Origin: a bacterium
GTDB taxonomy: Bacteria > Desulfobacterota > JAPLJL01
Assembly: GCA_028713675.1 (NCBI GenBank)
Contig: JAQTNV010000001.1
Location: forward strand, 73,879-137,878
DNA length: 64,000 nt
Reading direction: 5' to 3'
Shown piece after piece: positions 1 to 18,937 of this stretch. A program made the translations under genes and the position numbers. A model generated the notes under the pieces. It was not told the origin of the DNA and did no database searches. It worked only from the letters and a program-made list of their open reading frames with translations. Positions within the stretch are counted from its first letter, which is position 1. Each line of letters opens with the position of its first letter.

Positions 1-88
1 ATTTTAATTATTAACCTTGAACCGTGAACGTTGAACCTCTTAACCTAAGACCTATAACCTATAACCTATAACCTATAACCCATAACCC
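1..88. repeat. REP-like dispersed element (taaccttgaaccgtgaacgttgaacct..ttaacctaagacc) followed by an ATAACCT heptamer array
   Basis: The same ~55-bp core recurs at 1664-1735 (+) and as its reverse complement at 3414-3466. ATAACCT occurs x4, then CATAACC variants. Confidence 0.7.
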
Positions 89-1390
89 ATGACCCATATG
101 AACTGGACCAACTCTTCCCGATTGTTTAAAGCCGCCGGGCGGTATATACCCGGCGGGGTGAACAGCCCCGTCCGGGCCTTCCGCAATGTGGGGGGAAACC
201 CGCTTTTCATCACCCGGGGAAAAGGCTCGAAAATCTTCGACGCCGACGGCAACAGGTATGTCGATTACGTCTCTTCCTGGGGCCCGCTGATCCTGGGGCA
301 CGCCCACCCTTCCATCATCCGGGCGATCATGAAAGCGGCCGCCAAGGGCACGAGCTTCGGCGCCCCGACCGAAGAGGAAACCGAGCTCGCCCGCCTGATC
401 GTCCAGGCGATGCCTTCCATCGAGATGGTCCGCCTGGTCAGCTCGGGCACCGAGGCCGCCATGAGCGCCATCCGGGTGGCCCGGGGCTATACCAACCGGG
501 ACCAGATCATCAAGTTCGCCGGCTGTTACCACGGCCATTCCGACGGCCTCCTGGTGAAAGCCGGGTCCGGGGCGACCACGTTCGGGACCCCGGATTCAGC
601 CGGCGTCCCCGCGGATTACGCCCGCAATACCATTGTCCTCCCCTATAACGACAGCGAGGCGCTGTCCCTCTTCCTGGGGAAAAACGGCTCCAAGATCGCC
701 GCGATCATTGTCGAGCCGGTGGCCGCCAACATCGGCCTGGTCCCGCCGGAACCCGACTTCCTTAAGACCCTCCGCCGGCTTTCGGACCGGGACGGGATCA
801 TCCTGATTTTTGACGAGGTGATCACCGGGTTCCGCCTCGGCTACGGCGGCGCCCAGGAATATTACGGGATCAAGCCCGACCTGACCTGCCTGGGTAAAAT
901 CATCGGCGGCGGACTGCCCGTGGGCGCCTACGGAGGGAAGCGGAAAATCATGGAAATGGCGGCTCCGCTCGGCCCGGTCTACCAGGCCGGTACCCTTTCC
1001 GGGAACCCGGTGGCGGTGGCCGCCGGGATCGCCATGCTCAAGGAGCTCAAAAAACCCGGGACTTATCAAAAGCTCGCCAAAAAAGGCGCGAAACTGGCCT
1101 CGGCCCTGGCCCAAGCGGCTACGGAATCCGGAATTATCTCCCGGGTCAACAGCTTGGGCTCGATGTTCTCGATCTTTTTCGGGATCCGGGAAGCCTCTAA
1201 CTACGATCAGGTCCTGCAATCGGACCGCGAGCTTTATCGACGTTTCTTCTGGAACATGCTCGAGAGAGGAATTTACCTGGCCCCCTCCCCCTTCGAGACC
1301 GGCTTTGTATCCCTCGCCCATTCGGAAGCGGACCTGGATTACACCATCGGGAAAATAAAAGAAACGTTCAAAATAATAAATAGGAGATAG
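89..1390 (+). CDS. hemL: glutamate-1-semialdehyde 2,1-aminomutase (class III aminotransferase)
   Basis: 433-aa ORF. The N-terminus RLFxxAxxxIPGGVNSPVRAF and PLP-aminotransferase motifs are typical of HemL. Confidence 0.93.
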   Translation: MTHMNWTNSSRLFKAAGRYIPGGVNSPVRAFRNVGGNPLFITRGKGSKIFDADGNRYVDYVSSWGPLILGHAHPSIIRAIMKAAAKGTSFGAPTEEETELARLIVQAMPSIEMVRLVSSGTEAAMSAIRVARGYTNRDQIIKFAGCYHGHSDGLLVKAGSGATTFGTPDSAGVPADYARNTIVLPYNDSEALSLFLGKNGSKIAAIIVEPVAANIGLVPPEPDFLKTLRRLSDRDGIILIFDEVITGFRLGYGGAQEYYGIKPDLTCLGKIIGGGLPVGAYGGKRKIMEMAAPLGPVYQAGTLSGNPVAVAAGIAMLKELKKPGTYQKLAKKGAKLASALAQAATESGIISRVNSLGSMFSIFFGIREASNYDQVLQSDRELYRRFFWNMLERGIYLAPSPFETGFVSLAHSEADLDYTIGKIKETFKIINRR

Positions 1391-1756
1391 GAGATAGGAG
1401 ATTGAAGATAGGTCAAGCAAGACAAGAGCTTAGAGGTTTTATCTCTAGCCTCTCGCCTCTTGGCTCTAGACTATTTTTACGGCGGTCGGCGCAAGGAGCA
1501 TAGGGCAGAGAGCATAGGGCAGAGAGCATAGGGCATAGGGCAGAGGGCAGAGAGCAAAGGCGTCCATAGTGTCCATAGTGTCCATTGAGTCCATAGGGTC
1601 ATAGGTCGTAGGTCAAAGCTCAAAGGCAAAATCGAGATTCTTCGCCTACGGCTCAGAATGACAATATTTTAATTACTAACCTTGAACCGTGAACGTTGAA
1701 CCTATTAACCTAAGACCCATGACCTATAACCGAACAGAATAAATGGAGAAGGATAA
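1391..1756. repeat. intergenic short-period tandem word arrays (GAGATAGG, AGAGCATAGGGCAG, GTGTCCATAG, GGTCATAGGTCGTAGG) plus REP-like element copy at 1664-1735
   Basis: Direct reading of the sequence. Stop codons are dense in every frame. Confidence 0.75.
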
Positions 1757-1888
1757 ATGATGAACTGGGGATTTTTTATCGTCATCGGAGTTATTTTCCT
1801 TCTCTGCACGGTCTTCACCATTATCTCTTTCGTGTTTTACCTCAAGATCAAGAAAGAAGTCGATAAAACGAAAGAAGAAGACGATTAA
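1757..1888 (+). CDS. small hydrophobic membrane peptide (43 aa: MMNWGFFIVIGVIFLLCTVFTIISFVFYLKIKKEVDKTKEEDD)
   Basis: GGAGAAGG RBS lies 6 nt upstream of the ATG. One clear TM helix with a charged tail. Below the ORF-track length cutoff. Confidence 0.35.
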   Translation: MMNWGFFIVIGVIFLLCTVFTIISFVFYLKIKKEVDKTKEEDD

Positions 1889-1987
1889 GGACAGGCAGCA
1901 ATGAGCAATGAGCAACGAGCAACGAGTAAAGCTCAAAGCGGTAGCCGCAGGCTTAAGCCTGCGCTGAAGATAAAAGATTTGGAATAT

Positions 1988-2050
1988 CCTATCTCCTATC
2001 TCCAATCTCCTATCTCCAATCTCCTATCTCCAATCTCCTATCTCCAATCT
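1988..2050. repeat. tandem 14-mer (TCTCCTATCTCCAA) x ~4.5
   Basis: A perfect direct tandem is visible. The track ORF 1901..2137 runs through it and is probably spurious. Confidence 0.8.
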
Positions 2051-2154
2051 TCGATGAACCAGACGAACGAGACAGACCAAATAGACATTTTTCAGGTGAT
2101 GGGTTTTGGGTTCAGACCCATGACCTATAACCCATGACCTATAACCCATAAATT

Positions 2155-3366
2155 ATGAGTGATCTCGGCTACCGTCTGATCAGCTGCGTCGGACTCCTGG
2201 TGATGATGGGAGTCGCCTTCCTGCTTTCGGAAAACCGGAAAAAAATCAGTCTGCGGATCGTTTTCTGGGGATTATCCCTTCAGCTTATTCTGGTCTTCAT
2301 TATCCTCAAAACCCGCCCGGGGGAGCTCTTTTTCGACCTGGCCAAAAGGGTTTTCGATAAACTGATCCTCTTCAGCAATACCGGGGCGTCTTTCCTTTTC
2401 GGGGGACTGGTTACCGACTATAAAATCGGGGCGATCGTCGCTTTCCAGGCCCTCCCGATTATCATCTTCATCTCCGCGCTGGCCGGCATTCTTTATCACC
2501 TGGGCATCACCCAAAAGGTGGTGGCGGGGATGGCCTGGGTCATGCAGAAATCCATGCGCTGTTCCGGTGCCGAGGCGCTGATCGCCGTGCTCCAGATTTT
2601 CATGGGGATCGAATCCAACACCGTGATTCCCGCCTATATCAAGAAAATGACCCGTTCCGAGATCTTCGTGGTCATGACCACCTTCCTGGCCAGCATCGCC
2701 AGCTCCGTGATGGGGGTTTACGTTTCCTTCGGGGCCTCGGCGGGGCACCTGCTGACCGCCTCGATCATGAGCGCCCCCGCCGCGATTCTGATCTCCAAGA
2801 TGATGATCCCGGAAACCGGCGAGCCGCTCACCCGGGGCGGGGTCAAGTTCAATCCCGAGCGGACCTCGGTCAACGTGATCGACGCCGCCGCCACCGGGGC
2901 GGGGCAAGGCGTGCAGCTGGTGCTGAGCATCGCCGCCATGCTGATCGCCTTCATCGGCCTGATCGCGCTGGTGAATTTCCTTCTCCAGTTCGCGATCCAT
3001 GTCTCCCTCCAGGACATCTTCGGTTATCTCTTCGCCCCCTTCGCCCTGGTCATGGGGGTCCCGGCGGGGGAAGTCCTGACCGTGGGGAAACTTCTCGGCA
3101 CCAAGACCGTTCTGAACGAATTCCTGGCCTATCAGCAGATGCAGGGATTGGTCGCGCAGGGCCTGCTCTCGCCCCGGGCGCAGGTGATTTCGGTTTACGC
3201 CCTCTGCGGATTCGCCAACTTCGGCAGTATCGCCATCCTGATCGGGGGTCTGGGAGAGATCATTCCCGATCGGCGGGGCGAAGTGGCTTCCCTCGGCATC
3301 CGGGCCCTGGTCGCCGGAACACTCTCAACTTTTATGACGGCCTGCTTCGCGGGAATGCTGGTTTAG
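2155..3366 (+). CDS. concentrative nucleoside transporter, NupC/CNT family
   Basis: 403-aa polytopic membrane protein with the CNT-family architecture and conserved glycine-rich segments. Confidence 0.8.
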   Translation: MSDLGYRLISCVGLLVMMGVAFLLSENRKKISLRIVFWGLSLQLILVFIILKTRPGELFFDLAKRVFDKLILFSNTGASFLFGGLVTDYKIGAIVAFQALPIIIFISALAGILYHLGITQKVVAGMAWVMQKSMRCSGAEALIAVLQIFMGIESNTVIPAYIKKMTRSEIFVVMTTFLASIASSVMGVYVSFGASAGHLLTASIMSAPAAILISKMMIPETGEPLTRGGVKFNPERTSVNVIDAAATGAGQGVQLVLSIAAMLIAFIGLIALVNFLLQFAIHVSLQDIFGYLFAPFALVMGVPAGEVLTVGKLLGTKTVLNEFLAYQQMQGLVAQGLLSPRAQVISVYALCGFANFGSIAILIGGLGEIIPDRRGEVASLGIRALVAGTLSTFMTACFAGMLV

Positions 3367-3590
3367 AACAAGGTCATAGGTGATAGGTGATAGGTCATAG
3401 GTGATGGGTCATAGGTCTTAGGTTAAGAGGTGCAACGTTCACGGTTCAGCGTTAATTAGTATTTTTCGACCCAATAGACACAAAGAACACAACGACACGA
3501 TAAACACGATGGGTTTTGGGTGCTTGGCTGCTTGGAAGCGTAGCGTGCTTAGTACTTTGCCGCTCTCGCCTCTTAACTGCGGGCTGAATT
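3367..3590. repeat. GGTCATAGGTGATAGG array + reverse-complement copy of REP-like element (3414-3466)
   Basis: Direct reading. The element is the reverse complement of 1664-1735. Confidence 0.7.
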
Positions 3591-3591
3591 T

Positions 3592-3936
3592 TTACTCGTC
3601 TTCCCGGGTCCGTTTATCCTCGGGAGGATGAAACCAGTCGTAGTGGGTCATATTCGGATCGATCGGCTTGAACATGCAGGGAATTCGGTGCTTCTTATGA
3701 AAGGCGATGATCGAGTATCCTTCCCCTTTTAATTTATTGTAGAGGTTCTTGTTGGTAACCCAGACATAGGTGCCGCGTTCCACCCCGAATTCAAGCTGCT
3801 CGTCTTTACGAACAAAAATACCCCGTGAGGGGTCTTTTATTCCCGGGATGCTGGTAATAGTGTGCTTTTCCCAAAACTCGTCTGTATCGGGCTGAAACCG
3901 TTCGATCTGCTCTTCTAAGTTTAATTTCCTGCCCAA
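3592..3936 (-). CDS. hypothetical protein (114 aa)
   Basis: Clean ORF bounded on both sides by repeat arrays. I do not recognise a family. Confidence 0.45.
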   Translation of the reverse strand: MGRKLNLEEQIERFQPDTDEFWEKHTITSIPGIKDPSRGIFVRKDEQLEFGVERGTYVWVTNKNLYNKLKGEGYSIIAFHKKHRIPCMFKPIDPNMTHYDWFHPPEDKRTREDE

Positions 3937-3939
3937 TTC

Positions 3940-4494
3940 CCCCCAACCTCTCTAAATATAATTATCCTATAAAATATTCTTCAATTCAAATTATTTCGGG
4001 TAGAAAGCAAATAACAAATTGGAGATGGGAGATAGGACAGAGGGCAAAAAGAAAAGGCGTCCATTGTGTCCATAGTGTCCCTCAGATAAACCCTTCGGGA
4101 TAAATCCGTAGTGTCCGTAGTGTCCATGAAGAGCAGAGAGCAGAGGGCAGAGAACTGGTAGCAAGTAGCCGGTAGCCGGTAACCGGTAACCGGAAAAAGA
4201 AGGTGGCTAGGTGGTTGGGTGGTTAGAAAAACCAGTAGGCAGTATGCAGTAAACAGTAGGCAGAATCAGGTCATAGGTCATAGGTGATGGGTTTTGGGTT
4301 AAACCAAAGAAACTAGAGAAACTAGAGAAACCAGACAAACCAGACAGACGAGACAGACTAGATAGACCAGATGAACCAAAGAAACCAGATAGACAGTAAG
4401 AAGCAAGCAGCTCAAATTAAATGTTTGCCCGGTCTACCGTCTACTGTCCCTGGCCGGCTTCGCCCGTCTCGGGCAGGCTACCGTCTACCCTTAG
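3940..4494. repeat. long intergenic array of short tandem words (CAGTAGGCAGTA, GGTCATAGG, AAACTAGAGAAACCAGACAG, CTACCGTCTAC)
   Basis: Direct reading. The segment cagctcaaattaaatgtttgcccgg..ctaccgtctac recurs at 18815-18855 and as its reverse complement at 15040-15070. Confidence 0.75.
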
Positions 4495-5523
4495 CTACCG
4501 TTCCGGCTCGATGATCACCTTGATGGAATTCTTGGCCTCGGCGACCAGCTGGAATCCCTGGGCGGTTTCGGCCAGGCCCAGGCGGTGGGTGATCAGGTCG
4601 CGCACCGGCACCCGGCGGGTCCAGATCAGCTCCCGGGCCGCGAAATGATCGGCGGGGGCGCCGGCGTAGGAGGTGGTGATGGTTATATCATTGCGGAAGA
4701 AAAGTTCGGTAACCGAGAACGAAACCGACACCTCGGGCCGGGTGGGGGCATAGAGGAGAATCGTCCCTCCCCGTTCCGCCGAGGCGAAAGCCTGGGGGAA
4801 GGCGGAGGAGACCCCGGTGCAGACCATCACCTGGTCGGCCAGGCGGCCCTCGTTAAGTTCGCGCAGGCGGCGCGGCACATCCTCGGAGGCGGGGATGGCC
4901 TCGTCGGCCCCGGAGCGGACGGCCATCTCCAGCCGGTAATCCGCGACATCCACGGCCAGGATCCGCCCCGCGCCCAGGGCCCGGGCCAGGCGGATGTGGA
5001 GCAGGCCGGCGATTCCGCTGCCGATGACCAGAACCGTCTGCCCCGGTTTTACTCCCGCGATCTTCTGGGCCCGTACCGCGCAGGCCAGGGGCTCGATGAA
5101 GGTAGCTTCCTCCCACGACATCTCGACCGGGAGCGGATAGACCCCGCGGCTGACGTTGATCGCCGGCAGGCGGATGAATTCCGCGAATCCGCCCGGATCG
5201 TAATTGGTCTGGCGCAGGGTATTGCAGACGGTGTGGTGGCCGTTCCGGCAGTAATAACAGGTGTTGCAGGGGACATGATGAGAGGCCGCGATCCGGTCTC
5301 CGACCCGGTATTGCCCCACACCCTGCCCGACTTCAACAATTTCCCCGGCCGCTTCGTGGCCCAGGACCAGGGGGGCCTTGCCCGCCCGGTACCACTCCAT
5401 CACGTCACCGCCGCAGACGCCGCAGGCCTTGACCCTCATTAAAAGCTCGCCGGGGCCGATCCGGGGCTTGGGCATCTCCTGGACGCGGATATCGGAATTG
5501 CTGTAATACATCGCTACGCGCAT
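4495..5523 (-). CDS. Zn-dependent alcohol dehydrogenase (MDR family; threonine/sorbitol dehydrogenase-like)
   Basis: Contains the GHEAAGEIVEVG catalytic-Zn motif, a structural-Zn Cys cluster (CNTCYYC) and a GxGxxG Rossmann motif. Confidence 0.88.
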   Translation of the reverse strand: MRVAMYYSNSDIRVQEMPKPRIGPGELLMRVKACGVCGGDVMEWYRAGKAPLVLGHEAAGEIVEVGQGVGQYRVGDRIAASHHVPCNTCYYCRNGHHTVCNTLRQTNYDPGGFAEFIRLPAINVSRGVYPLPVEMSWEEATFIEPLACAVRAQKIAGVKPGQTVLVIGSGIAGLLHIRLARALGAGRILAVDVADYRLEMAVRSGADEAIPASEDVPRRLRELNEGRLADQVMVCTGVSSAFPQAFASAERGGTILLYAPTRPEVSVSFSVTELFFRNDITITTSYAGAPADHFAARELIWTRRVPVRDLITHRLGLAETAQGFQLVAEAKNSIKVIIEPER

Positions 5524-5597
5524 GGTTAATCCTCTTTAGCCTGCGAGAAAAGTTGAACAGGCGGGACAGGCGAGAAAAATATTAACAATCAGAAGCT

Positions 5598-6438
5598 TCA
5601 ACCTTTCCCGCCTTTCTTGCCTTTCTTGCTTTTCTTGCTTTTCGCGCCTTTCCCGGTTTTTCCGCCATCGTAAATTTTCTGGGCTTCCGCGGGGGAGGCG
5701 TTTTCATGGATGATCGCGCGGATCGCCTTGATCATCGCCACCGGCTGATCGTTCTGCCAGATGTTCCGGCCCAGGTTTACCCCGATGGCCCCCTTCTTCA
5801 TCCCGTCATGGACGAATTTGAACACCTCGAGCTCGGTGTCCACCTGGGGCCCGCCGGCCATCACCACCGGCACCGGGCAGCCCCGCGTCACCTTGTCAAA
5901 ATCCTCGCACCAGTAGGTTTTCACCACCCGGGCGCCCAGTTCAGCCGCGATCCGCGAGCAGAGGGCCAGGTAGCGGGCCTGCCGCTTTTCGAGCTCCTTG
6001 CCCACCGCGGTCACCGCCATCACCGGAATGCCGTATTTTTCCCCCTCGTCGACCAGCTTGGCCAGGTTGAGGAGCGATTCCTTCTCATACTCGGTGCCGA
6101 TGAAAACGGAGATCCCCACGGCCGCCGCGTTCAGGCGGATGGCCTCCTCCATCGTGGTGGTCAAGCCCTCATTGGCCAGGTCCTTGCCCACCACGCTGGT
6201 GCCGCCCGAGACCCGGAGGATGATCGGCCTGGTGTTCTCCGGGTCCACCGAAGAGCGCAAAACCCCGCGGGTGACGAAAACCGCGTCGGCATAGGGAAGC
6301 AGGGGCGCGAGGGTCCGGCCCGGCTCCTCCAGCTTGTGCGTGGGCCCCTGGAAGTATCCGTGATCGATCGGCAGAAACAGGCAGTGCCCGTCCGCCTTGA
6401 TCAGCTGCGCCATCCGGTTCGCCATTCCCCAGTCCATA
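5598..6438 (-). CDS. class I fructose-bisphosphate aldolase, DhnA/FbaB-type (or ADH synthase AroA' family), with Lys/Gly-rich C-terminal tail
   Basis: LPIDHGYFQGP start and TIM-barrel aldolase motifs. I moved the start to the ATG at 6438, which has a GGAAGGGGG RBS. The track start at 6542 has none. Confidence 0.8.
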
Positions 6439-6514
6439 ACCCTGACCCCCTTCCTTAAGGAAGCATTAATATCCTGATGATTTATACCGATTAAATTACT
6501 CCGAAATCCGGATA

Positions 6515-6553
6515 AAAAAAAGCCCCGATCCCATCGGGGCATCGGGTTTTTTT
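6515..6553. terminator. bidirectional rho-independent terminator (A-run, GC hairpin gccccgat-ccc-atcggggc, T-run)
   Basis: Hairpin flanked by A8 and T7 runs. It lies just downstream of the minus-strand archaemetzincin gene. Confidence 0.6.
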
Positions 6554-6593
6554 AAATAAAAAGTCATTTTTCCAAGAATCGGCCCTTTTAAAA

Positions 6594-7127
6594 TTATTCC
6601 CGGCCGGTATTAATCCGCTGCGAACAGCCTGAACACAGCTTTTTACCTTTTTTATCCGTATCCGCGATAGATTTGGAAAAAAACATCACGCATTCCGGGT
6701 TCTCGCAGTGCTGAAGTCCGAACAGGTGCCCGAGCTCGTGGACCGCCTCCTTCGCCACCCGGTCGGAAAACAGCTTCCGGTCCGGCGGCTTCCGGTAAAA
6801 TTCCTGTCTCAGCCGCTGTAAGGAAATAACCGCCACCCTCCCGGAAATGCCATCCGCCTTGCCGAAAACATAATGAAGCTCGTTGGTAACAAGATCTACA
6901 TCCGCGATCCCCAGGACTTTCAGGCAATCCTCATCCGGAACCCTCTGCCCGATCCGGTTCAGGACGGGGACAACCAGGTACCGGTTTCGTTTCTGGTCGT
7001 AGGCCATTTCCGGCAACGGAACCTCGACCCGGGCGGTAACTTCATAGCCATAAGTTTCCTTGATCTCCTGCCGGAGCTCCGGAAAAACGGCGGAAGCGTC
7101 ATTCCCGACGGAAACCAGGCAGATCAT
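6594..7127 (-). CDS. archaemetzincin (AmzA) family zinc metalloprotease
   Basis: HELGHLFGLQHC...C...C...CSGC zinc-binding signature. Start set at MICLVSVG, which matches the family N-terminus. The longer track ORF (to 7415) is probably an over-extension. Confidence 0.72.
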   Translation of the reverse strand: MICLVSVGNDASAVFPELRQEIKETYGYEVTARVEVPLPEMAYDQKRNRYLVVPVLNRIGQRVPDEDCLKVLGIADVDLVTNELHYVFGKADGISGRVAVISLQRLRQEFYRKPPDRKLFSDRVAKEAVHELGHLFGLQHCENPECVMFFSKSIADTDKKGKKLCSGCSQRINTGRE

Positions 7128-7541
7128 CGGCTTCGGCTGTTCTTTCGGCTCCGTCTCGGCGCCGTTGTTGTTCATGATCACGACCATTCCGAAACAAACC
7201 ATCGGCGACAGGATCGTTTCCAGATATTTCCCGGCTCTTATCAATCTGTTAATCACTGGCATTAAGGTGTTTTTATAACTCGTTAATTTATTGGCATATT
7301 TTATTGATTTATCACCAATTCTCCAACCCTGCCTTTTCCTATTTACAATATAACGGCGTGGAGGAAATTCGAGAGGTTTTCCCGCGTTCCATTTTTCCCA
7401 AAATAGGCTTGACAAACCACTCTATTTGTTATGAAATTATCCATATATCACTTATAGGTAAATTTTAGATTCCAGGGCGATACTGGTGCGCGCATTTTCT
7501 CCATTCGCGGGTATTTTCTTTTCTAAAGGGAGAAAAACGAT

Positions 7542-8069
7542 ATGGAAACTTCGAAAGAAAATGTCAGAAGATCAACAACTCAAGGAATTACCGCCGTATC
7601 GCCGGCCAAAATCACCGTCGGGTCGCCAGCCCCCGATTTCTCCCTGGTGGATTATCAGGATCAACCCTTCAGCCTCTCCAGCTTCCAGGGGAAAAAGGCC
7701 GTCCTTCTCGTCTTTCTGCGGGGATTCGCCTGCAAGCAATCCCAATGGCACCTGGAAGGCCTCAAAGAAGATTACGCGAAATTCAAAGAATTCAAGGCGG
7801 AGGTGGCCGCGATCGGCCAGCACTCCAAGGTCGAATTTTATAACATGTGGAAGGTCATGGGCTTTCCTTTCGTGGGCCTTCCGGACGAGAAAGAAAAAGT
7901 GGCAAAGCTCTATAAGCAAAAGGTAGTCTTCGAGGAAAGAGGCCGGCTCCCCGCGCTTTTCCTGGTGGACAAGTACGGGTCGGTCGCCTTTGCCCATTAC
8001 TGCTCGAATATGTATGACATCCCCCCCAACGAAAAGCTGCTGCAGACACTGGCCAGGATAAAAAGCTGA
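7542..8069 (+). CDS. thioredoxin-fold redoxin (AhpC/TSA-like), paralog 1
   Basis: APDFSL..VLLVFLRGFACKQSQW redoxin-like core. A paralog sits at 30400..30966. Confidence 0.7.
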   Translation: METSKENVRRSTTQGITAVSPAKITVGSPAPDFSLVDYQDQPFSLSSFQGKKAVLLVFLRGFACKQSQWHLEGLKEDYAKFKEFKAEVAAIGQHSKVEFYNMWKVMGFPFVGLPDEKEKVAKLYKQKVVFEERGRLPALFLVDKYGSVAFAHYCSNMYDIPPNEKLLQTLARIKS

Positions 8070-8170
8070 TCAATTCCGGATTATTTTTTTCCCTCCCATA
8101 TCGTTTATAATATTCCCGCAAATATTCTTTTACTATCCAAACCCCCGAAACCGGGACAAGGAGAAATTCC

Positions 8171-11070: not shown

Positions 11071-11544
11071 ATGTCCCGAGTCGTCATCATCATGGGTTCG
11101 AAAAGCGATCTGAAATGGTCCGAGGAAATCGCCGAGGCCTTGAAAAAGCTGGGCGTGGAATCCATCCTCCGGATCGCCTCCGCCCACAAGGTCCCGCTGA
11201 AATGCTTTGAAATCATAAAAAAATATGAAGACGAGAACGTGGTGTTCATCACCGTGGCCGGGAGGAGCAACGCCCTGAGCGGCTTCACCGACGCCCAGAC
11301 CCACTGCCCGGTGATCGCCTGCCCTCCTTACAGTGAAAAATTCGGGGGCGCCGATATCTGGTCCACCCTGAGAACGCCTTCGGCGGTGGCCCCGATGGTG
11401 GTGCTGGAGCCCGAAAACGCCGCCCTGGCCGCGGCCAAGATCCTGGGCCTGCAGGACAGGATCGTCCGGGAAAAGATCAAGCAATATCAGGCGAAGTCCC
11501 GGGAAACGATAGAGAAAGACGATAAGGAGATACAAAAAAGGTGA
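11071..11544 (+). CDS. purE: N5-carboxyaminoimidazole ribonucleotide mutase
   Basis: VVIIMGSKSD, ASAHK, VAGRSNALSG. A canonical PurE. Confidence 0.92.
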   Translation: MSRVVIIMGSKSDLKWSEEIAEALKKLGVESILRIASAHKVPLKCFEIIKKYEDENVVFITVAGRSNALSGFTDAQTHCPVIACPPYSEKFGGADIWSTLRTPSAVAPMVVLEPENAALAAAKILGLQDRIVREKIKQYQAKSRETIEKDDKEIQKR

Positions 11545-11880
11545 AAGGGTAAAGGGCATAGGGCATAGGGCATAGGGCATGGTGCATGGCGCAGGGAGCA
11601 AAAGGAAAAGACCAAAACGAGATTCTTCCCTCGATCATTCTCGGGACAAGTCGCCAGAGGTTTATACTGAGCGAAGCGAATGTGCTCAGAATGACACCTT
11701 TACAGACCGCCGACGGCCGCCTGCAGAAAAGGCGGGTTATGGGTGATGGGTGATAGGTCATAGGGTTTAAAACCCAACACCCACAACCCAACATTGTCAT
11801 TCTGAGCTAAGCGAAGAATCTCTCTTTTTCTTTCCCGGTATGCTGTCTACTGTCTACCTTTTGCCAAAAATGGACTGATC
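11545..11880. repeat. CATAGGGC array + inverted copy (11618-11695) of the 9147-9234 element + gtcattctgagctaagcgaagaatctc motif
   Basis: Direct reading. Confidence 0.75.
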
Positions 11881-13569
11881 TTGGAAAAGAATTATAAATT
11901 CTGGCCGGAGGGGGTGGAAAAGCATATTGATTACCCCGAGATCCCGGCCTTCGAAATCCTCCGCTCCTCCGCCCGCAAGTGGCCCGAAAGAAACGCCCTC
12001 ATCTTCCAGGGAAAGGAAATCACCTACCGTGAGCTCGATTCCCTCTCGGACCGCTTCGCCGCCGCCCTGGCGAAGCTGGGGGTCGCCAAAGGCCACCGGG
12101 TGGGGATCCATCTGCCCAACTCTCCCCAATTCGCCATCGCCTATTTCGGCATCCTCAAGGCCGGGGCGGTCTTTGTCCCGATCAGCACCATGCTGGCGGA
12201 TAAGGAGCTTTCCTTCCTGCTCCGGGACGCGGGGGTGGAGACTTACATCGGGCTTGACACCACCTGCAACGAAAAACATTACGCCCTTTCCGGCACCCCC
12301 GTGCAAAGGGTCATTCCGGTCAACCTTTCCGGTGAAGCCCCGGCCGCAAAATCCTCCCCGCCGGAAACCCGGGATTTCGCCGCCCTGCTGAAAGACTCCG
12401 ATCCCAATCCGCCCCGAATCGATTTCAATCCCCGGGAGGACCTGGCCCACATCGCCTACACCGGCGGGACCACCGGCACCCCCAAGGGAGCCATGATCAC
12501 CCATTACAACGTCGTGGTGAACACCTGCCAGTATTTCTGCTGGTTTGCCGGCGGGGTCCTGACCTGGCGGAACGGCATCATCGACATTGAAAGGCGGGAA
12601 GGCGACCGCGAGGAAAACCACTGCCTCCTCCCCGGCCGGGAAACAGTCCTGGTGGTTTCCCCCTGGTTTCACGCCATGGGCGTGATCGGCTACGTGAACC
12701 GCCTGCTCGTCCTGGGGGCCACGATCGTCGTGTTCCCCCGCTTCGACCCGGGGGAATTTCTCCGCGCCATTCCCCGGTACCGGCCCACCTTTTTCGGAGG
12801 CGCCCCCGCGCTTTTCATTCCCCTGATCGAGCACCCTCTTTACCGGGAAACGGACATGTCGGGGATCAAAGCGGTGGGGTCAGGGGCCGCGATCCTTTCT
12901 CCGAGCCTGATCTCCGCCCTGGAGGAAAAATTTCCCCGGCGCATTCTCGAAGGATACGGAATGACGGAAGCCACCATGGGCGCGGTCAACAGCCCCCCGA
13001 CCCCGAAAATCTGGAGGCCGGGCTCAGTCGGCCTGCCCATTCCCGACACCGAGATCAAAATCGTCGATCCGGAAAAAGGCGAAACCGAACTCCCGATCGG
13101 GGAGGCCGGCGAGATCTGCATCCGCGGGCCCCAGGTGATGAAAGGATACTTGAACCGTCCCGAGGAAACCGCCCAGGTCCTGCGCTCGGGCTGGCTTTAC
13201 TCCGGCGACATCGGGAGAATGGACGAGGACGGGTTCCTTTACATCGTGGACCGGAAGAAGGACATGCTCATCTACAAGGGATATAACGTCTACCCCCGCG
13301 ACCTGGAGGAGACGCTCAATTCCCATCCGGCCGTGGCGCAATCAGCGGTGGTCGGGAAGAAGGACCCGCGTTCCGGGGAACTGCCCGCGGCTTTTGTCCG
13401 GCTGGCTCCGGGAAAAACCGCCACCGAGCAGGAACTGCTCGAATACGCCAACCAGCGGCTCGCCGCCTATAAAAAAATCCGGATTCTGAAAATTGTCGAT
13501 TCCCTGCCGGTCAGCGCCGCCGGCAAGATCCTGAAAAGAGAACTGAAGAAAATAGTGGAAAGCTGGTAG
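11881..13569 (+). CDS. AMP-dependent acyl-CoA synthetase (long-chain fatty-acid--CoA ligase family)
   Basis: AMP-binding motifs YTGGTTGTPKGA and GYGMTE. TTG start as in the ORF track. Confidence 0.9.
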   Translation: MEKNYKFWPEGVEKHIDYPEIPAFEILRSSARKWPERNALIFQGKEITYRELDSLSDRFAAALAKLGVAKGHRVGIHLPNSPQFAIAYFGILKAGAVFVPISTMLADKELSFLLRDAGVETYIGLDTTCNEKHYALSGTPVQRVIPVNLSGEAPAAKSSPPETRDFAALLKDSDPNPPRIDFNPREDLAHIAYTGGTTGTPKGAMITHYNVVVNTCQYFCWFAGGVLTWRNGIIDIERREGDREENHCLLPGRETVLVVSPWFHAMGVIGYVNRLLVLGATIVVFPRFDPGEFLRAIPRYRPTFFGGAPALFIPLIEHPLYRETDMSGIKAVGSGAAILSPSLISALEEKFPRRILEGYGMTEATMGAVNSPPTPKIWRPGSVGLPIPDTEIKIVDPEKGETELPIGEAGEICIRGPQVMKGYLNRPEETAQVLRSGWLYSGDIGRMDEDGFLYIVDRKKDMLIYKGYNVYPRDLEETLNSHPAVAQSAVVGKKDPRSGELPAAFVRLAPGKTATEQELLEYANQRLAAYKKIRILKIVDSLPVSAAGKILKRELKKIVESW

Positions 13570-13690
13570 AGCGACCGGTCCGACCTGTCCGACCTGTCAG
13601 ACCAGTCGGACACTTCGGACCAGTCCGATTACGCTTTGTTTTTTGCTCTTTGCCCTTCGCCCTATGCCCTATGCTATATGCGCTCCGCGC

Positions 13691-14839
13691 TTACATCAGC
13701 CCCATCATCCGGGCGATGATCTGCTTCATGATCTCGGTCGACCCGGCGGTGATGGTCTGCACCCGCATGTCGCAGTAATAGTGCGCGATCGGATATTCCA
13801 TCATGTAGCCGTAGCCCCCGTGGAGCTGGACGCCGTAATAAGCCACCCGGTTGACGAGCTCGGTGTTATACCACTTGGCCATGGAGACTTCCTTGGTAAT
13901 GTCCTTCCCGTCCAGGTGGTCGTCCACGATCTTGTAGGTGAAGGTCTTGGCCATCTCGATCTCGGTGGCGAATTCAACCAGGCGGAAGGCGTTGGCCTGG
14001 AATTTGCTGATCGGGCGCCCGAAAGCCTCCCGGGTCTTGGCGTAATCGATCGTGAGGTTGAGAATCGTCTCGGCCATGAGAATGGAGCCCAGGCACGCCA
14101 CCAGCCTTTCCTGCTGGAGATTTTCCATCAGGATATAGAAGCCCTTCCCTTCCTCCCCCAGGAGATTGCTCACCGGCACCCGGCAGTCCTCGAAACTCAA
14201 TTCGGCGGTGTCGGCGGCGGTAACGCCCATCTTTTCCAGCCTCCGGCCCTTGGTGAAACCGGGGGTGCCGTCCTCCACCAGGATCAGGCTGATCCCGGTG
14301 TGGGGTGGCTTGGCCTTGGGATCGGTCTTGACCGCCACGATCACCAGGTTGCACTTGATCCCGTTAGAGATAAAGGTCTTCTGGCCGTTGATCACGTACT
14401 CGTCGCCTTTCCGGACCGCGGTGGTGCGGATGGCGGCCAGGTCCGACCCCGCGCCCGGCTCGGTCATGGCGATCGCCACAATGCAGTCGCCCTTGCAGGC
14501 GGCCGGCAGGTATTTCAGCTTCTGCGCTTCGGTCCCCTTCCGGGCCAGGTAGGGCATGGCGATGTCGTTATGAACGCTCATCCCGAGGCCCAGGTCCCGC
14601 GAGGTTTTCGAGTATTCCTCGTGAAGGACCACCGAGTAACTGAAGTCCAGCCCGGAACCGCCGTATTTCGGATCCACCCAGTAGCCGATGAAGCCCTGGT
14701 CTCCCAGCTTCTTCCAGATTTCCCGGGGGATGTCATGTTTTTCCTTCCACTCGTACATGTGCGGGGTCACCTCGTTGGCGAGAAACTTCCGGAGCGAGGC
14801 GCGGAAAAGCTCATGCTCTTCGGTGAATTTCAGCGGCAT
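13691..14839 (-). CDS. acyl-CoA dehydrogenase
   Basis: 382 aa with ACAD N-, middle and C-domain motifs (IAMTEPGAGSD, YGGYGY). Confidence 0.9.
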   Translation of the reverse strand: MPLKFTEEHELFRASLRKFLANEVTPHMYEWKEKHDIPREIWKKLGDQGFIGYWVDPKYGGSGLDFSYSVVLHEEYSKTSRDLGLGMSVHNDIAMPYLARKGTEAQKLKYLPAACKGDCIVAIAMTEPGAGSDLAAIRTTAVRKGDEYVINGQKTFISNGIKCNLVIVAVKTDPKAKPPHTGISLILVEDGTPGFTKGRRLEKMGVTAADTAELSFEDCRVPVSNLLGEEGKGFYILMENLQQERLVACLGSILMAETILNLTIDYAKTREAFGRPISKFQANAFRLVEFATEIEMAKTFTYKIVDDHLDGKDITKEVSMAKWYNTELVNRVAYYGVQLHGGYGYMMEYPIAHYYCDMRVQTITAGSTEIMKQIIARMMGLM

Positions 14840-15528
14840 CTTTTTATCCTCCTGGTTTTGTCTGTCTCGTCTATCTGGTCTATCTAGTCTATCTAGTCTA
14901 TCTAGTCTATCTGGTTTGTTTGGTTTGTCTGGTTTTCATTCGTCAATCGTCAATTCCTGTTGACCTTTCACCTGATTTAATGGGATTTATTATTTAATTT
15001 AACCCGCTGGAATTGTCAAATTGGAAAAGGGTAGACGGCATACGGTAGACGGCAGACCGGGCAAACATTTAAGGTGATGGGTGAATTAGCAAAGTGCATA
15101 GGGCATAGAGCATAGAGCATAGGGCATAGCGTTAAGAATGTTTTGCTGGTTCATATGGTTTCTCTGGTTCATCTGGTCTATCTCGTCTATCTAGTCTGTC
15201 TCGTTCATCTCAATCGCATAGGGCATGGAGCATAGGGCAGAGGGCAGAGAACAAAGAACATAAAGTTAAAAACGTTCGTCTGGTTCATCTGGTTTCCGAG
15301 CTCTGCGAGCCCGACGAAGCCCCGAAGTCCGCTGAAGCGAAGCGGAAGCTAACCGGGCGAAGTCTGGGATGGTTTCTCTAACCACCTAATCACCCAGCCA
15401 CCTATCCACCTAACCACCTAACCACCTAGCCACCTAACCACCTAACCACCTAGCCACCTAACCACCACGCAACCTTAAGGTTGCGGCTACCGCTCAACGT
15501 CTGCAGGGGTGGACAGGGAGAAATAGAA
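14840..15528. repeat. repeat block; its 15040-15480 part is the left arm of a long imperfect inverted repeat (CTAGATAGAC, CATAGGGC, CCACCTAA arrays, gcaaccttaaggttgc palindrome)
   Basis: Its reverse complement is found at 18540-18860. Confidence 0.8.
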
Positions 15529-16017
15529 ATGGTAAAAAATAACGACAAATTAAACTCGACTAACACGAGAAAGCCGATGAATCTCAAAAATCCATTGTCC
15601 GCTTCGGAATTACTGGAGAGATTCCGGAAAAAGCTGGAAAAGGATGTCGCCAAAATCGGCGTGCATCCCGACCAGCCCCAATTCTGGAAAAGATATTCCC
15701 TGGGAAAAATCGAGGGACTGGACACCTCCCATGAAATCTATCTCCGGGTGGCCACCCTGCAGGAATGGGGCCTTCCCTCGGAACTGATCTGCGTGAAAGG
15801 ATGGGTTTACACCCCCACCGCCAAGATTTACGAGAAATTCAAAAAACTCGGCTATGAATTGATCAGCCTTCATCCCAAAGCCAAGACACCCCTCCTGTTC
15901 AAAACCACCCCGGGGGAGGTGCATCTCTCCGTCCTGGGACTGGAAAGGCGCATGCGAGAAGATCATTTTACCCCTCCCGGCCAGGACGAGTGGTTCCTCC
16001 CCCCCGATAAGTCATAA
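15529..16017 (+). CDS. hypothetical protein (162 aa)
   Basis: ATG with a GGAG RBS. The track start at 15481 lies inside the repeat. No recognisable family. Confidence 0.5.
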   Translation: MVKNNDKLNSTNTRKPMNLKNPLSASELLERFRKKLEKDVAKIGVHPDQPQFWKRYSLGKIEGLDTSHEIYLRVATLQEWGLPSELICVKGWVYTPTAKIYEKFKKLGYELISLHPKAKTPLLFKTTPGEVHLSVLGLERRMREDHFTPPGQDEWFLPPDKS

Positions 16018-16193
16018 CGCGATCAGCCCCAGGAACGTTTGCAGGGTTAGCATCGTTAGTAGCGTTAGTAGCGTTAATAGCGCTAATAGCGTTAGTAGCG
16101 TTAATATCAAAACAGCGTTAGTTTCCGGTCGATTTAAACGGTCCCAACGGTACTAACGGTCCTAACGGTCTTAACGTTATTCAGCGAGGATAA
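16018..16193. repeat. TAGCGTTAG / CTAACGGTC arrays, mutually reverse-complementary (long hairpin potential) in the 5' region of the fusion gene
   Basis: Direct reading. Confidence 0.6.
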
Positions 16194-18524
16194 ATGGACA
16201 AGACAGAAATCATCGATTTTCTGAAAAATCAGGTGCCGCTTTTCCAGGGCTTCCCGGAAGCCCGCCTGCGGGAGCTGGTCGAGGGCTCACGCCTGACCCA
16301 CTATGCGGCCAACGAGGCGGCCATCCGGTTCGGCGAGGAGGGACGGTTCCTGGGCGTCATCCTCGAAGGGGAATCCGAGGTTTCCGTCACCGATGACAGC
16401 GGGGAAAAGCACCGGATCGGCCTCCTGAAAAAGGGGGACATCTTCGGCGAAATGTCGCTCATGACCGGGGACAAAACCATGGCCGACGTCATCGGGATCA
16501 CCTCCGGCCGGGCCCTGCTGATCCCCTCGAGCCTCTTCTCGACCATCCTGATCACGCACCCCCCGGCGGTTAAATACCTTTCGAAAACCATTTCCGAGCG
16601 CATCAAGCAGTCCGCCCGGGAAAACGCCGGCCGGGACCTGGCCGCCTCGGCATTCCGCGCCAGCGACGATCCCTACGGCTTCAAGCTCAAGAGCGAGGAG
16701 CCGCTGAAGGCCCTGGTGATAAACTGCGGATCCTCCTCCCTGAAATACAACCTTTTCGATACCGGAAACGAGAAGGCGAATGCCCGCGGGATGATCGAAA
16801 AAATCGGGGAAGAAGGCACCCGCCACACCTACCGCTCGGCCCGGGGGGAAATCTCACAAACCCTCCCGAATGGCGGTCACGCGGAGGCCTTCGCGGCCAT
16901 GATGTCGGCCCTGCGGGACCCGGACCGCGGGGTGATCGGCTCCCCGGATGAAATCGCCGCGGTGGGTCACCGGGTCGCGCACGGCGGGGATATCTTCCCG
17001 AACTCAACCATTATCACCGATAAGGTAATCAAGGAAATCCAAAACCTTTCCCGGCTGGCCCCCCTCCACAACCCGGTCAACCTGGTCGGAATCAGGGAGG
17101 CCCAGCGTCTTTTTCCCCGGGCCGCCCAGGTCGCGGTTTTCGACACCTCTTTTCACCAGACCCTGCCCGCCTACGCCTATCTCTACGGTCTGCCTTACGA
17201 GTATTACAAAAAGAACCGGATCCGCCGCTACGGTTTCCACGGGATGTCCCACGCCTACGTCGCCCTGAAGGCCGCGGAGCATCTCAAGCGGCGCTTCAAC
17301 GAGCTCGAGATCGTCACCTGCCACCTCGGGAACGGGGCCTCGATCTGCGCCGTCGACCACGGCCGCTCCATCGACACCTCCATGGGGCTGACCCCCACCG
17401 AGGGGCTGATCATGGGAACCCGCTCCGGCAACCTCGACCCCTCCGTGGTCACCCACCTGATCCGGACCGAGGGACTGGACCCGGACGCCATGGACCGCAT
17501 CCTGAACCGGGAAAGCGGACTGAAGGGAATCTCCGGCATCTCCAACGACATGCGGGACATCGAGAAAAACGCCCAGGAGGGCAACCAGCGCGCCCTCCTG
17601 GCCTTCAAGACCTTCTGCTACCAGGTCCGGAAATACATCGGGGCCTACGTGGCGGCGATGGGGGGGCTCGACGCCCTGGTCTTCACCGGCGGCATCGGCC
17701 AGGGCAGCGCGGGGGTGCGGAGCCTGGCCTGCCAGGGCCTGGGCTACATGGGCATCCAGATCGAGGAAAAGAAGAACCAGGAAGCCCGGGGCGCGGAGAC
17801 TGTCATCGACATCTCCGTCCCGGAAGCGCCGGTCCGGGTCCTGGTCATTCCCACCGACGAGGAGCGGATGATCGCCCGGGAAACCATCCGCACCCTGGGC
17901 CAGCGCCACGTGACCAGGATCATCAGCACCCAGAAAGACACTCCCATCCCCCTGGAGATCTCCGCCCACCACGTCCATCTCTGCCAGGCGCATGTCGAAG
18001 CCCTGTTCGGACCCGGGCACCAGCTCACCGCGGACAAGGATCTTTCCGAGCCCGGCCAGTTTTCCTGCAAGGAAACGGTCAACCTGGTCGGGCCCAAGGG
18101 CCGGGTGGAGCGGGTCCGTGTCCTCGGACCGACCCGGAAGGAAACCCAGATCGAAATTTCTATGACGGAGCAATTCAAACTCGGGATCCATCCCCCCATC
18201 CGGGAGTCCGGGGACATCGAGAACAGCCCGGGCATAACCCTGGAAGGCGCGGCCGGCACCCTGACCTTAAGCAAGGGGGTGATCTGCGCCATGCGCCATA
18301 CGCACATGTCGCCGGAGCACGCCCTGCTTTTCGGCCTCCGCGACCGCGACCGGGTCATGGTCAGGGTCAAGGGGGAGCGGGAACTGATTTTCGGGGACGT
18401 GCTGATCCGGGTCACCCCGGGGTTCAACCTGACCATGCATATCGATACCGACGAGGGAAACGCCGCCAACGTCAAGACCGGGGACCTGGGCTACATTGAG
18501 GCGATTCAGAATAGAGAACAGTAG
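16194..18524 (+). CDS. tri-domain fusion: cNMP-binding regulatory domain + acetate/propionate kinase (AckA) + PduL-type phosphate acyltransferase
   Basis: Residues 1-140 are a Crp-like cNMP-binding fold (GDIFGEMSL). The middle has ASKHA kinase motifs (LVINCGSSSLKY, HRVAHGG, HLGNGASICAV). The C-terminal ~200 aa carries two PduL repeats (ISAHHVHLCQAHVEALFG and ICAMRHTHMSPEHALLFG). Confidence 0.82.
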   Translation: MDKTEIIDFLKNQVPLFQGFPEARLRELVEGSRLTHYAANEAAIRFGEEGRFLGVILEGESEVSVTDDSGEKHRIGLLKKGDIFGEMSLMTGDKTMADVIGITSGRALLIPSSLFSTILITHPPAVKYLSKTISERIKQSARENAGRDLAASAFRASDDPYGFKLKSEEPLKALVINCGSSSLKYNLFDTGNEKANARGMIEKIGEEGTRHTYRSARGEISQTLPNGGHAEAFAAMMSALRDPDRGVIGSPDEIAAVGHRVAHGGDIFPNSTIITDKVIKEIQNLSRLAPLHNPVNLVGIREAQRLFPRAAQVAVFDTSFHQTLPAYAYLYGLPYEYYKKNRIRRYGFHGMSHAYVALKAAEHLKRRFNELEIVTCHLGNGASICAVDHGRSIDTSMGLTPTEGLIMGTRSGNLDPSVVTHLIRTEGLDPDAMDRILNRESGLKGISGISNDMRDIEKNAQEGNQRALLAFKTFCYQVRKYIGAYVAAMGGLDALVFTGGIGQGSAGVRSLACQGLGYMGIQIEEKKNQEARGAETVIDISVPEAPVRVLVIPTDEERMIARETIRTLGQRHVTRIISTQKDTPIPLEISAHHVHLCQAHVEALFGPGHQLTADKDLSEPGQFSCKETVNLVGPKGRVERVRVLGPTRKETQIEISMTEQFKLGIHPPIRESGDIENSPGITLEGAAGTLTLSKGVICAMRHTHMSPEHALLFGLRDRDRVMVRVKGERELIFGDVLIRVTPGFNLTMHIDTDEGNAANVKTGDLGYIEAIQNREQ

Positions 18525-18937
18525 GCAGCAAAGGGCATAGGGCATAGAGCAAAGCGGTAGCCGCAACCTTAAGGTTGCGTGGTGGTTGGGTGGTTGGGTG
18601 GTTAGGTAGTTGGGTGGTTAGAGAAACCATCCCAGACTTCGCCCGGTTAGCTTCCGGTTAGCTTCCGCTTCGCTTCAGCGGACTTCGGGGCTTCGTCGGG
18701 CTCGCAGAGCTCGGAAACCAGATGAACTAGATGAACTAGATAGACGAGATAGACGAGATAGACCAGATAGACCAGGTAAATCAGAGAAACCAGATAGACG
18801 ATTAACGATAAGCAGCTCAAATTAAATGTTTGCCCGGCCTACCGTCTACCCTAAAATTTTCTTGACTTGAAATGAATTACGGTGTTATAAAATAGCACCG
18901 ATCATTTTTATATGGCGGCCGAAAGCAAACTTTAAAA
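18525..18937. repeat. right arm of long inverted repeat (reverse complement of 15040-15480)
   Basis: Sequence comparison. Arrays differ in copy number and a ggttagcttcc unit is duplicated. Confidence 0.8.

Follow-up and report, generated by a model that had tools for sequence, protein, structure and literature searches.

Dense and word-rich arrays of short tandem repeats with a common strand polarity in the intergenic spacers of an uncultured bacterium

The stretch of DNA analysed here (the window; 64,000 nt, positions 73,879 to 137,878 of contig JAQTNV010000001.1, GenBank assembly GCA_028713675.1) belongs to a metagenome-assembled genome (MAG) and carries tandem arrays of short words between its genes. 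These arrays are the subject of this report. The coding and intergenic parts were separated with a Pfam-supported gene map, which includes hemL, a NupC-type transporter gene (nupC), the genes for a zinc alcohol dehydrogenase (ADH), DeoC, an M54 peptidase, AhpC, an alpha/beta hydrolase and a DUF2804 protein, purE, the genes for an acyl-CoA synthetase and an acyl-CoA dehydrogenase (ACAD), and a fusion gene for cNMP-binding, acetate kinase and PTAC domains (ack-pta). The genes flanking the arrays are ordinary housekeeping genes.

Tandem Repeats Finder (TRF) returned 109 rows for the window, mostly short-period arrays clustered in the spacers. At positions 1–19,000, 40.5% of the 4,456 intergenic bases lie in repeats of period 7, 8 or 9, compared with 1.6% of coding bases. 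When the same spacers were shuffled 50 times with dinucleotides preserved, mean coverage was 0.3% and the maximum 1.6%. By TRF, the intergenic periods are 7 (32 arrays), 9 (15 arrays) and 8 (6 arrays), and super-periods of 14, 18 and 21 nt are also present. The 52 arrays are built from 38 distinct words once strand and rotation are collapsed, and the sequence ATAGGNNATAGGNNATAGG is seen 6 times where 0.00 occurrences are expected. The spacers are mosaics with up to nine different arrays each, and both strands are represented. The heptamers have a common core, ATAGGNN, and the nonamers have ATAG; the vocabulary is centred on TAG (ATAGGNN, ATAGTGTCC, ATAGACCAG) and is lineage-specific.

A first-pass annotation, made from the sequence alone, had listed arrays in 12 spacers and in both orientations, and had called their density and variety atypical of bacterial intergenic DNA. 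Indeed, TRF detected arrays in all 12 spacers, covering 31–84% of each, in both orientations and at a density far beyond the shuffled control. Restriction to intergenic DNA was likewise observed; the clear exception is one in-frame period-9 array, and the weak repeat hits in coding DNA have periods of 6, 9 or 12. Other parts of that description needed correction. Arrays had been placed in nearly every intergenic space of the high-GC part, but they are found in 11 of the 15 spacers at 1–19 kb (the four short spacers 5524–5597, 6543–6593, 7416–7541 and 8070–8170 have none by TRF) and in just one of the 12 at 19–41 kb (37,803–37,978), though the GC content is ~0.6 until about 41 kb. Several quoted units referred to real arrays in the wrong phase: 'GAGATAGG' stands for the heptamer ATAGGAG and 'GTGTCCATAG' for the nonamer GTCCATAGT, and the true unit of 'GTCCGACCTGTC' is CGACCTGTC.

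Below we call the G-rich words G-forms and the C-rich words C-forms; copy numbers are from TRF. Spacer 1–97 contains one copy of a dispersed module (1–66), and its C-form words AACCTTG (13–38) and TAACCTA/ACCCATR (41–98) reach the hemL ATG at 98 without a Shine-Dalgarno sequence. Right after hemL follows a chain of G-form arrays (1380–1626), consisting of ATAGGAG x4.7, GAGCATAGGGCAGA x4.6, GTCCATAGT x4.9 and CATAGGT x4.9, with a C/T-rich CTCTAGC array (1443–1469) interspersed; the TAG stop of hemL is supplied by the ATAGGAG array itself. Upstream of a 43-aa open reading frame (ORF; 1757–1889) lies a C-form segment (1666–1740) with a second copy of the module (1666–1731, 94% identical) and ACCYATR words. 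It is followed by AGCAACG x4.3 (1897–1926), by the C-form TCCAATCTCCTATC x4.6 (1987–2050), which is inverted relative to 1380–1435, and by a G-then-C hairpin, GGTGATGGGTTTTGGGT / GACCCATGACCTATAACC (2095–2149, folding z −3.85), that ends 6 nt before the nupC ATG. The region 3371–3461 opens 5 nt past the nupC stop with a G-form AGGTCAT/AGGTGAT array (x7.6) of 21-nt super-period, after which comes an inverted copy of the module (3400–3461, 86% complementary to 5–94). Spacer 4020–4494 is a mosaic of about nine G-form arrays (GGAGATR, GTCCATAGT, TCCGTAGTG, AGAGCAG, GGTAGCC, AGGTGGTT, CAGTAGG, AGGTCAT and AAACCAGAC x9.9), after which C-form GGTCTACCGTCTAC words adjoin the ADH stop.

The array inside coding sequence lies on the minus strand at 5602–5666, has period 9 and encodes the Lys/Gly-rich C-terminal tail of DeoC (…GKTGKGAKSKKSKKGKKGGKG*). 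DeoC is 314 aa long here and 277 aa in a relative; the tail is an array absorbed into the coding sequence. At 9321–9628 the G-arm (9321–9354), loop and C-arm (9418–9470) of a 175-nt dispersed element (folding z −4.5) are followed on the 3′ side by a C-form chain of GACACTATG, TTACCCC, TTGCCTC and CCTATGA that extends to the DUF2804 stop. The region 11546–11857 opens immediately past the purE stop with AGGGCAT x4, a G3N4 pattern, and also contains a G-then-C hairpin (GGGTGAT / ACCCAAC, 11734–11793, folding z −3.4) and a CTGTCTA array (11843–11857). The homologue of this purE in a relative (AIR carboxylase; L121 8740–9055) is called at 314 aa, against 157 aa here, and GGGCTG-type repeats of 6/12/24/30 nt make up the extra N-terminal half.

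Spacer 13572–13674 combines CGACCTGTC x6.3, after the acyl-CoA synthetase stop, with TTTGCCC / CCCTATG, which is C-form on the plus strand and G-form in the sense of the convergent ACAD gene. A divergent spacer (14860–15466) holds GTCTATCTG x8.2, TCAATCG, AGACGGC, AGCATAG x6, CTGGTTCAT/TCTGGTCTA, GCAGAGG, GTTCATCTG and CTAACCAC x11.1. Between orf178 and ack-pta, the G-form GTTAGTAGC x6.4 precedes the C-form AACGGTCCT x4.4 (16046–16176). The ack-pta gene (16194–18524) encodes a single 776-aa protein with a cyclic-nucleotide-binding domain, acetate kinase and a PTAC phosphotransacylase domain, an architecture common among uncultured Acidobacteriota, Verrucomicrobiota, Spirochaetes and others. 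Past it, at 18528–18801, are GCATAGG, GGTGGTTG x4.9, CCGGTTAGCTT x3.1 and AACTAGATG / AGATAGACC x6.9. The last case is an isolated G-then-C heptamer hairpin (AGGTGAT x3.3 / ACCCATA x4.4, 37813–37885; minimum free energy (MFE) −31.8 kcal/mol, z −4.4) with an ABC-2 permease gene on one side and a TfoX-domain gene on the other.

Relatives at 86–90% protein identity were found in independent JGI, ENA and Logan assemblies. In RpoA, the nearest relative shares 90% identity with a protein of an NCBI MAG, but only about 59% with those of Thermodesulfobacteriota, Syntrophales and Desulfobacca; judged by sequence, the host is a deep-branching bacterium distantly allied to Thermodesulfobacteriota. The relatives too carry arrays of period 7 and 9, and the sites persist while the words turn over. 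Upstream of hemL in one relative (L003) are AACCTTG/GAACGTT and ACCCATR words as in window 1–88, in different copy numbers. A second relative (L001) has the AGATAGAC and TCAATCG arrays of the ACAD upstream spacer at its orthologous site, in fewer copies. On the other hand, a motif search, as proposed in the first-pass annotation, showed that none of 14 window patterns is present in L001, which has arrays of its own. A 72%-identical relative carries AACCCAAGA x21 upstream of an aminotransferase gene, and in one relative arrays lie within the S13-S11-S4 ribosomal-protein operon. The idea of a genome-wide vocabulary is thus partly upheld: in relatives, arrays are found at further loci, spacers of a ribosomal-protein operon among them, but they are patchy in the window and their words change fast.

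An assembly artefact could be suspected, as the source is a MAG contig and the arrays are clustered in one part of the window. However, relatives in independent assemblies have arrays at the same spacers, which rules this out for practical purposes, and the arrays adjoin intact housekeeping genes and even supply a stop codon.

Copy-number variation, for which the first-pass annotation had proposed a check, was found as well. Two contigs covering the same 21,020-nt region in two samples (L245 and L246) differ by 33 substitutions, and their sole indel is one 7-nt GCAGAGG unit, located in the GCAGAGG array at the cstA 3′ end. The same single indel separates L121 and L246 across 14,452 aligned nt. 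Such a one-unit polymorphism is the signature of slippage, and together with the copy-number differences at orthologous spacers it makes the slippage or template-switching origin proposed in the first-pass annotation plausible. At this site (L245 14508, L121 6406) the one-unit heptamer change alters the predicted C-terminus of CstA, which is 603 or 594 aa long depending on the sample.

When a relative's 34.7-kb contig was compared with the window, every array-rich spacer was seen to sit at a difference in gene order. nupC, the M54 gene and the DUF2804-purE-acyl-CoA synthetase block are present only in the window, and GH1-PIN, a transposase associated with repetitive extragenic palindromic (REP) sequences and NTP_transf_5 only in the relative's contig. 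No arrays were found in the conserved adjacencies ADH-DeoC and AhpC-hydrolase.

Stop codons in every frame had been named as a property of all arrays, and translational insulation between operons as their leading role. We found a stop on at least one strand in 38 of the 52 units and on both strands in 11; the other 14 have none, so that arrays such as AGAGCAG, TTGCCTC and ACCCAAC contain no stop whatever. Insulation could be argued from the TAG-holding units of period 7 and 8, which close all three frames within three units, and from hemL, which ends on an array TAG. The period-9 arrays, however, close one frame only. The array-adjacent 3′ ends also reach all-frame closure sooner (median 83.5 vs 149 nt, one-sided p=0.017), in a test that is heterogeneous and confounded by the downstream coding sequence in its control set. 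Relative to expectation, TAG is at 2.33x in the arrays, at 0.43x in the remaining intergenic DNA and at 0.23x in coding DNA, and 29 of the 52 units hold a TAG against 11±3 for shuffled units. No enrichment was seen in the window arrays for TAA (0.84x) or TGA (0.95x). The arrays of other phyla show no excess of TAG but, if anything, a deficit (43 observed vs 60.5 expected), which indicates a lineage vocabulary rather than selection for stops. The TGA excess in those arrays (111 vs 67 and 44 vs 24.6) arises partly because the bait GGTGAT contains TGA. Selection for stop codons was therefore rejected, since only TAG is enriched, mostly on one strand and in a lineage-specific manner. We consider translational insulation highly improbable, and the stop codons are probably a by-product of TAG-rich words.

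Besides the arrays, duplicated blocks in the window include unique sequence. In addition to the module at 1–66, 4309–4444 is 82% identical to 18714–18849, and 15274–15494 recurs inverted at 18553–18736 as a composite repeat of ~220 nt, in which 83 nt are 98% identical and the 8-mer arrays have 11 and 5 copies. Between the arms of this inverted repeat lie orf178 and the ack-pta fusion gene. Another inverted repeat, perfect over 79 nt (9146–9224 / 11618–11696) and of a 'GTCATTCTGAGC…GAAGAATCTC' family, with members in L001 and L003 too, brackets DUF2804 and purE, and the purE of the nearest relative lies elsewhere, beside rplQ. This suggests a recent repeat-mediated relocation.

A search of metagenomes with the bait GGTGATGGGTTTTGGGT brought to light the 175-nt dispersed element mentioned above. 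The bait is not lineage-specific: its matches come from many environments and GC contents, and 61 of 120 adjoin arrays. The element is non-coding (window 9274–9442) and recurs at 92–93% identity in three other metagenome contigs, of which two are near-identical (L203 9127–9294; L218 7176–7343, minus strand; L238 3987–4149). With that of the window, its copies occupy three unrelated flanking contexts. Its layout is a T-rich/G6 leader, a heptamer G-arm, a conserved loop (…AAAGTCGAAAAGAAAATATCTTCCC…GGGGGATCGAGGGGGATTTTCAATG) and a C-arm. A search of Rfam gave no match to the element, and none at E<=1 within 9100–9640. A small mobile element is one possibility, an undescribed RNA another.

These observations bear on a possible origin of the arrays as arms of small mobile hairpin elements, similar to REP/REPIN sequences or to miniature inverted-repeat transposable elements, with the spacers as insertion graveyards and the tandem units as arm-internal structure. 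The dispersal of the 175-nt element, the composite inverted repeats around genes and the coincidence of array-rich spacers with gene-order differences are in line with this, and so is the folding of complementary halves. Local GGTSATR / YATSACC pairs form long hairpins with z −3.4 to −4.5 here, and those of Syntrophorhabdus and Pyrinomonadaceae fold almost perfectly (z −5.0 to −10.7). Yet most G-form arrays have no complementary partner in their own spacer, and 38 different words are involved. A whole-spacer hairpin model was rejected: with mononucleotide shuffles, MFE z ranged from +1.2 to −6.3 for array spacers and from −1.0 to −8.9 for array-less ones, so the array spacers are no more extreme. 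Neither target-site duplications nor defined ends were found, and the unit-number polymorphism looks like slippage and not like insertion. L001 encodes a REP-associated tyrosine transposase (RAYT; NF047646, 88.9 bits) at 12213–13073, with 16-nt inverted repeats, GGGTCAGGTCTTGATA, on its two sides. Its gene separates those of the hydrolase and ACAD, a position taken in the window by DUF2804-purE-acyl-CoA synthetase. The presence of this gene speaks for mobile elements, but GGGTCAGGTCTTGATA is missing from the window even when 3 mismatches are allowed. As the transposase flanks match nothing in the window, a link of the arrays to RAYT was rejected. Taken together, an origin of the arrays as mobile hairpin arms is possible but doubtful.

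The array-less spacers past 19 kb contain ordinary terminators and 'GTCATTCC…GGAATGAC'-type palindromes instead, which by their sequence appear to be a second, unrelated intergenic repeat class of the same genome. One of these spacers (19436–19687) has a very strong predicted structure (z −8.9), with 'GTCATTCC…GGAATCC / GGATTCC…GGAATGAC' palindromes and a clean intrinsic terminator. Farther along, a 372-nt tandem duplication (23275–24024, 92% identical) inside the gene of a 1,793-aa PAS/GAF histidine kinase is probably a recent duplication of a PAS domain. At 41000–64000 the GC content falls from about 0.6 to 0.32–0.53 and short arrays are lacking; this part holds 213-nt tandem repeats (61697–63923) and 150/465-nt repeats in ORF 59160–60965. 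It is perhaps an island, or else the MAG contig is mis-joined here.

Within each spacer the arrays are ordered, with G-rich TAG-bearing words on the 5′ side and C-rich words on the 3′ side, on either strand. In 11 of 11 array-bearing spacers the left half exceeds the right half in both GC skew and TAG-minus-CTA count; the weakly arrayed spacer 10858–11070 is tied and was left uncounted. The 23 array-less spacers of at least 100 nt do not show this order (left higher in 8, right higher in 14, one tied). Since the order is identical on both strands, it is equivalent to say that G-forms abut stops on the coding strand and C-forms abut starts. G-forms start 0–30 nt past stop codons, and C-forms extend to the ATG of hemL and that of nupC without a Shine-Dalgarno sequence. 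For this reason, a gene-relative polarity (3′ G-form, 5′ C-form) was dropped as a separate model: with one switch per spacer it is mathematically identical to a strand-symmetric G-then-C dyad. Nor can a polarity that is the same on both strands alone show an effect of transcription direction.

We also scanned 185,579 species genomes for (GGTSATR)n and obtained at least 116 stretches, and viral contigs yielded 42 further matches. Taxa among the matches listed are Cyanobacteria, Acidobacteriota, Desulfobacterota, Bacteroidota, Gemmatimonadota, Actinomycetota and others. Where arrays of opposite skew are adjacent among the matches listed, 70 read G-then-C and 13 C-then-G (p about 1e-10; 49 loci vs 6). 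Loci of Sphaerospermopsis and Pyrinomonadaceae have the same G-then-C architecture, and the two halves are often non-complementary, e.g., GGTAATT/CCAGTCA in Sphaerospermopsis. Departures from the order are seen in the AGATAGAC array upstream of ACAD and in L246, where the L36-S13 spacer has C before G.

Such a polarity could indicate a function in which the arrays act on RNA as orientation-coded spacer elements, either as two-sided guards that limit read-through and antisense transcription or by tuning translation initiation. RNA entering an ORF would be C-rich and G-poor, as an unstructured leader or a Rho-loading pad, and RNA leaving it would be G-rich. The persistence of arrays at orthologous spacers fits this, as does the frequent lack of complementarity between the halves, since strand composition then outweighs pairing. 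A preprint reports that deletion of heptamer repeats altered reporter expression in Nostoc (bioRxiv 10.1101/2022.06.06.494920), and a translational role has been proposed for TAACTGA repeats (PMC4679880). Against it stand the rapid turnover of words and copy numbers, the exceptions to the order and the many array-free spacers past 19 kb. Moreover, arrays inside the ribosomal-protein operon are transcribed within a polycistronic mRNA and are thus not strong terminators. Canonical signals are not enriched either: we counted 32 sites resembling intrinsic terminators (GC-rich stem and U-tract) against 26.5±6.0 expected, and 13 resembling sigma-70 promoters (−35/−10 hexamers) against 10.2±3.2. We regard an RNA-level function as unlikely. 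A broader version, in which the G-then-C dyad is a phylum-spanning design that uses slippage-made arrays as disposable material for two-sided guards, and this lineage is an extreme user with a private TAG vocabulary and possibly a lineage-specific binding protein, seems to us quite unlikely. The polarity may instead stem from founding by small hairpin elements whose arms drifted by slippage, or from weak orientation-dependent selection on untranslated transcript ends.

In another reading, a sequence-specific protein that recognizes ATAGG-like words in DNA or RNA would use the arrays as multi-site landing pads; it might be a nucleoid protein, a regulator or an RNA binder of the S1/Csp/CsrA type. 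An ATAGG/TAG core is common to words of different period, the 21-nt super-periods correspond to two helical turns, and a similar proposal exists for TAACTGA repeats (PMC4679880). However, many of the 38 words lack the core, the vocabulary is replaced in an 86%-identical relative, and no candidate protein was identified. Thus, landing pads are a very unlikely explanation. Covariance models of Rfam 15 gave no match at the gathering score in the 64 kb, which also contain no tRNA genes. On anatomy alone we dropped telomere-like and iteron readings, and also CRISPR, in which 24–48-nt repeats are separated by unique spacers; here, units of 7–9 nt are contiguous.

Our preferred explanation, to which we assign a probability of roughly 0.7, is that the arrays are long simple sequence repeats (LSSRs), resembling the short tandemly repeated repetitive (STRR) sequences of cyanobacteria and the GGGAATC and TAACTGA repeats, with replication slippage as the process that generates and alters them and with small mosaic or hairpin modules as their seeds and as part of the way they spread. 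Whole units are gained and lost between close relatives as well as within a population, as slippage would predict. Blocks of arrays together with unique sequence are duplicated elsewhere as such modules, and spacer sites persist through the turnover of words and copy numbers.

Several points weigh against slippage as the full account. It does not by itself explain why arrays lie 0–30 nt from ORF ends, persist at orthologous spacers and keep a G-then-C polarity, features that hint at a function or a structured origin. No explanation was found for the abrupt end of the arrays at ~19 kb, on the same contig and at similar GC content. In addition, the evidence from the source genome covers 64 kb, with lineage-wide claims relying on the contigs of relatives, and the cross-phylum loci were picked by a heptamer bait and not as a random sample of genomes.

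Repeats of the LSSR kind have been on record for decades, and no function is known to have been established for them. A systematic survey dates from 2007 (Mrazek et al., as summarised in PMC4679880). The window is among the densest and most word-diverse examples, from an uncultured deep-branching lineage, and the contigs of its relatives provide direct evidence for one-unit polymorphism in natural populations. The G-rich-5′/C-rich-3′ rule, as far as the sources describe it for single words in Xanthomonas and Nostoc, is extended here to dozens of unrelated words and, among the matches listed, to the heptamer arrays of many phyla. If the polarity reflects function, it offers a concrete and testable handle on what such repeats do; if not, the arrays are ordinary though extreme slippage-prone non-coding DNA. 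In practice, they inflate spurious calls of small ORFs, mark rearrangement-prone spacers and are possible markers for strain typing.

Among known repeats, LSSRs come closest. As summarised from Mrazek et al. (2007) in PMC4679880 and PMC4692102, they have units of 5–11 nt, most commonly heptamers, occur in scattered taxa and mostly in non-coding DNA, and are proposed to arise by slippage. The window arrays share the head-to-tail units far beyond chance length, the predominance of heptamers, the mainly intergenic location with multiples of three tolerated in genes (the period-9 DeoC tail) and the instability of unit number. They differ from LSSRs as summarised there in their very high local density (40% of intergenic bases over 19 kb), in the concatenation of up to nine words per spacer, in the TAG-centred vocabulary and in a lineage that does not appear among those surveyed.

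The strand rule has its closest parallel in the GGGAATC repeats of Xanthomonas and the GGGGAYT repeats of Nostoc PCC 7120. In the account of Rehm et al. (2015; PMC4692102), the G-rich repeat is nearest to the 5′-neighbouring ORF, whatever the ORF orientation: it follows stops at 0–50 bp on the coding strand, and ahead of starts it occupies the non-coding strand. Pairs in convergent inverted arrangement are described there as well, as are locations that are conserved between relatives while lengths and sequences vary. Exactly the same rule holds in the window. Those genomes, as described, use essentially one word with G3–G4 runs, whereas here GGG or CCC runs occur in only 11 of 52 units, most words having GG or no G-run, and an explanation by quadruplexes thus does not carry over.

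STRRs were described under that name around 1990, and their classical words are CCCCAAT, TTGGTCA and CAACAGT (STRR1–3). None of the three is present in tandem in the window, nor are other published words such as GGGAATC and GGGGAYT. Like the window arrays, cyanobacterial STRRs are tandem heptamers of several families in non-coding DNA, and the Sphaerospermopsis loci have the same multi-word G-then-C layout; the host, in contrast, is not a cyanobacterium, as its relative's RpoA indicates. The TAACTGA arrays of marine Beggiatoaceae stand just upstream of start codons that lack ribosome-binding sites (MacGregor, 2015; PMC4679880). They resemble the window in having heptamers directly upstream of starts in one orientation, but they consist of one dominant word in 2–6 copies, and the arrays described here follow stops too. 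TAACTGA itself occurs four times in the window, each time singly and never in tandem.

Repeats of the REP, bacterial interspersed mosaic element (BIME) and REPIN-RAYT type are also intergenic and dispersed, with some hairpin-forming units, and a relative has a RAYT gene; REPs, however, are single palindromes of 20–40 nt and not tandem heptamers, and a link of the RAYT flanks to the arrays was not found. Geobacter metallireducens, a Deltaproteobacteria-type genome, has 3–5 tandem heptamers or nonamers (GGACCGG, MTYCTGA, TCTCCGTS[Y]), often as opposite-strand pairs (PMC2700814). These are tandem families of the same unit lengths, but their 3–5 copies are fixed, they occupy a few dozen sites and they are read as regulator binding sites, whereas copies are variable and words many in the window. 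We conclude that the arrays are not a new system but a very dense and word-rich case of a known, functionally unexplained class of repeats.

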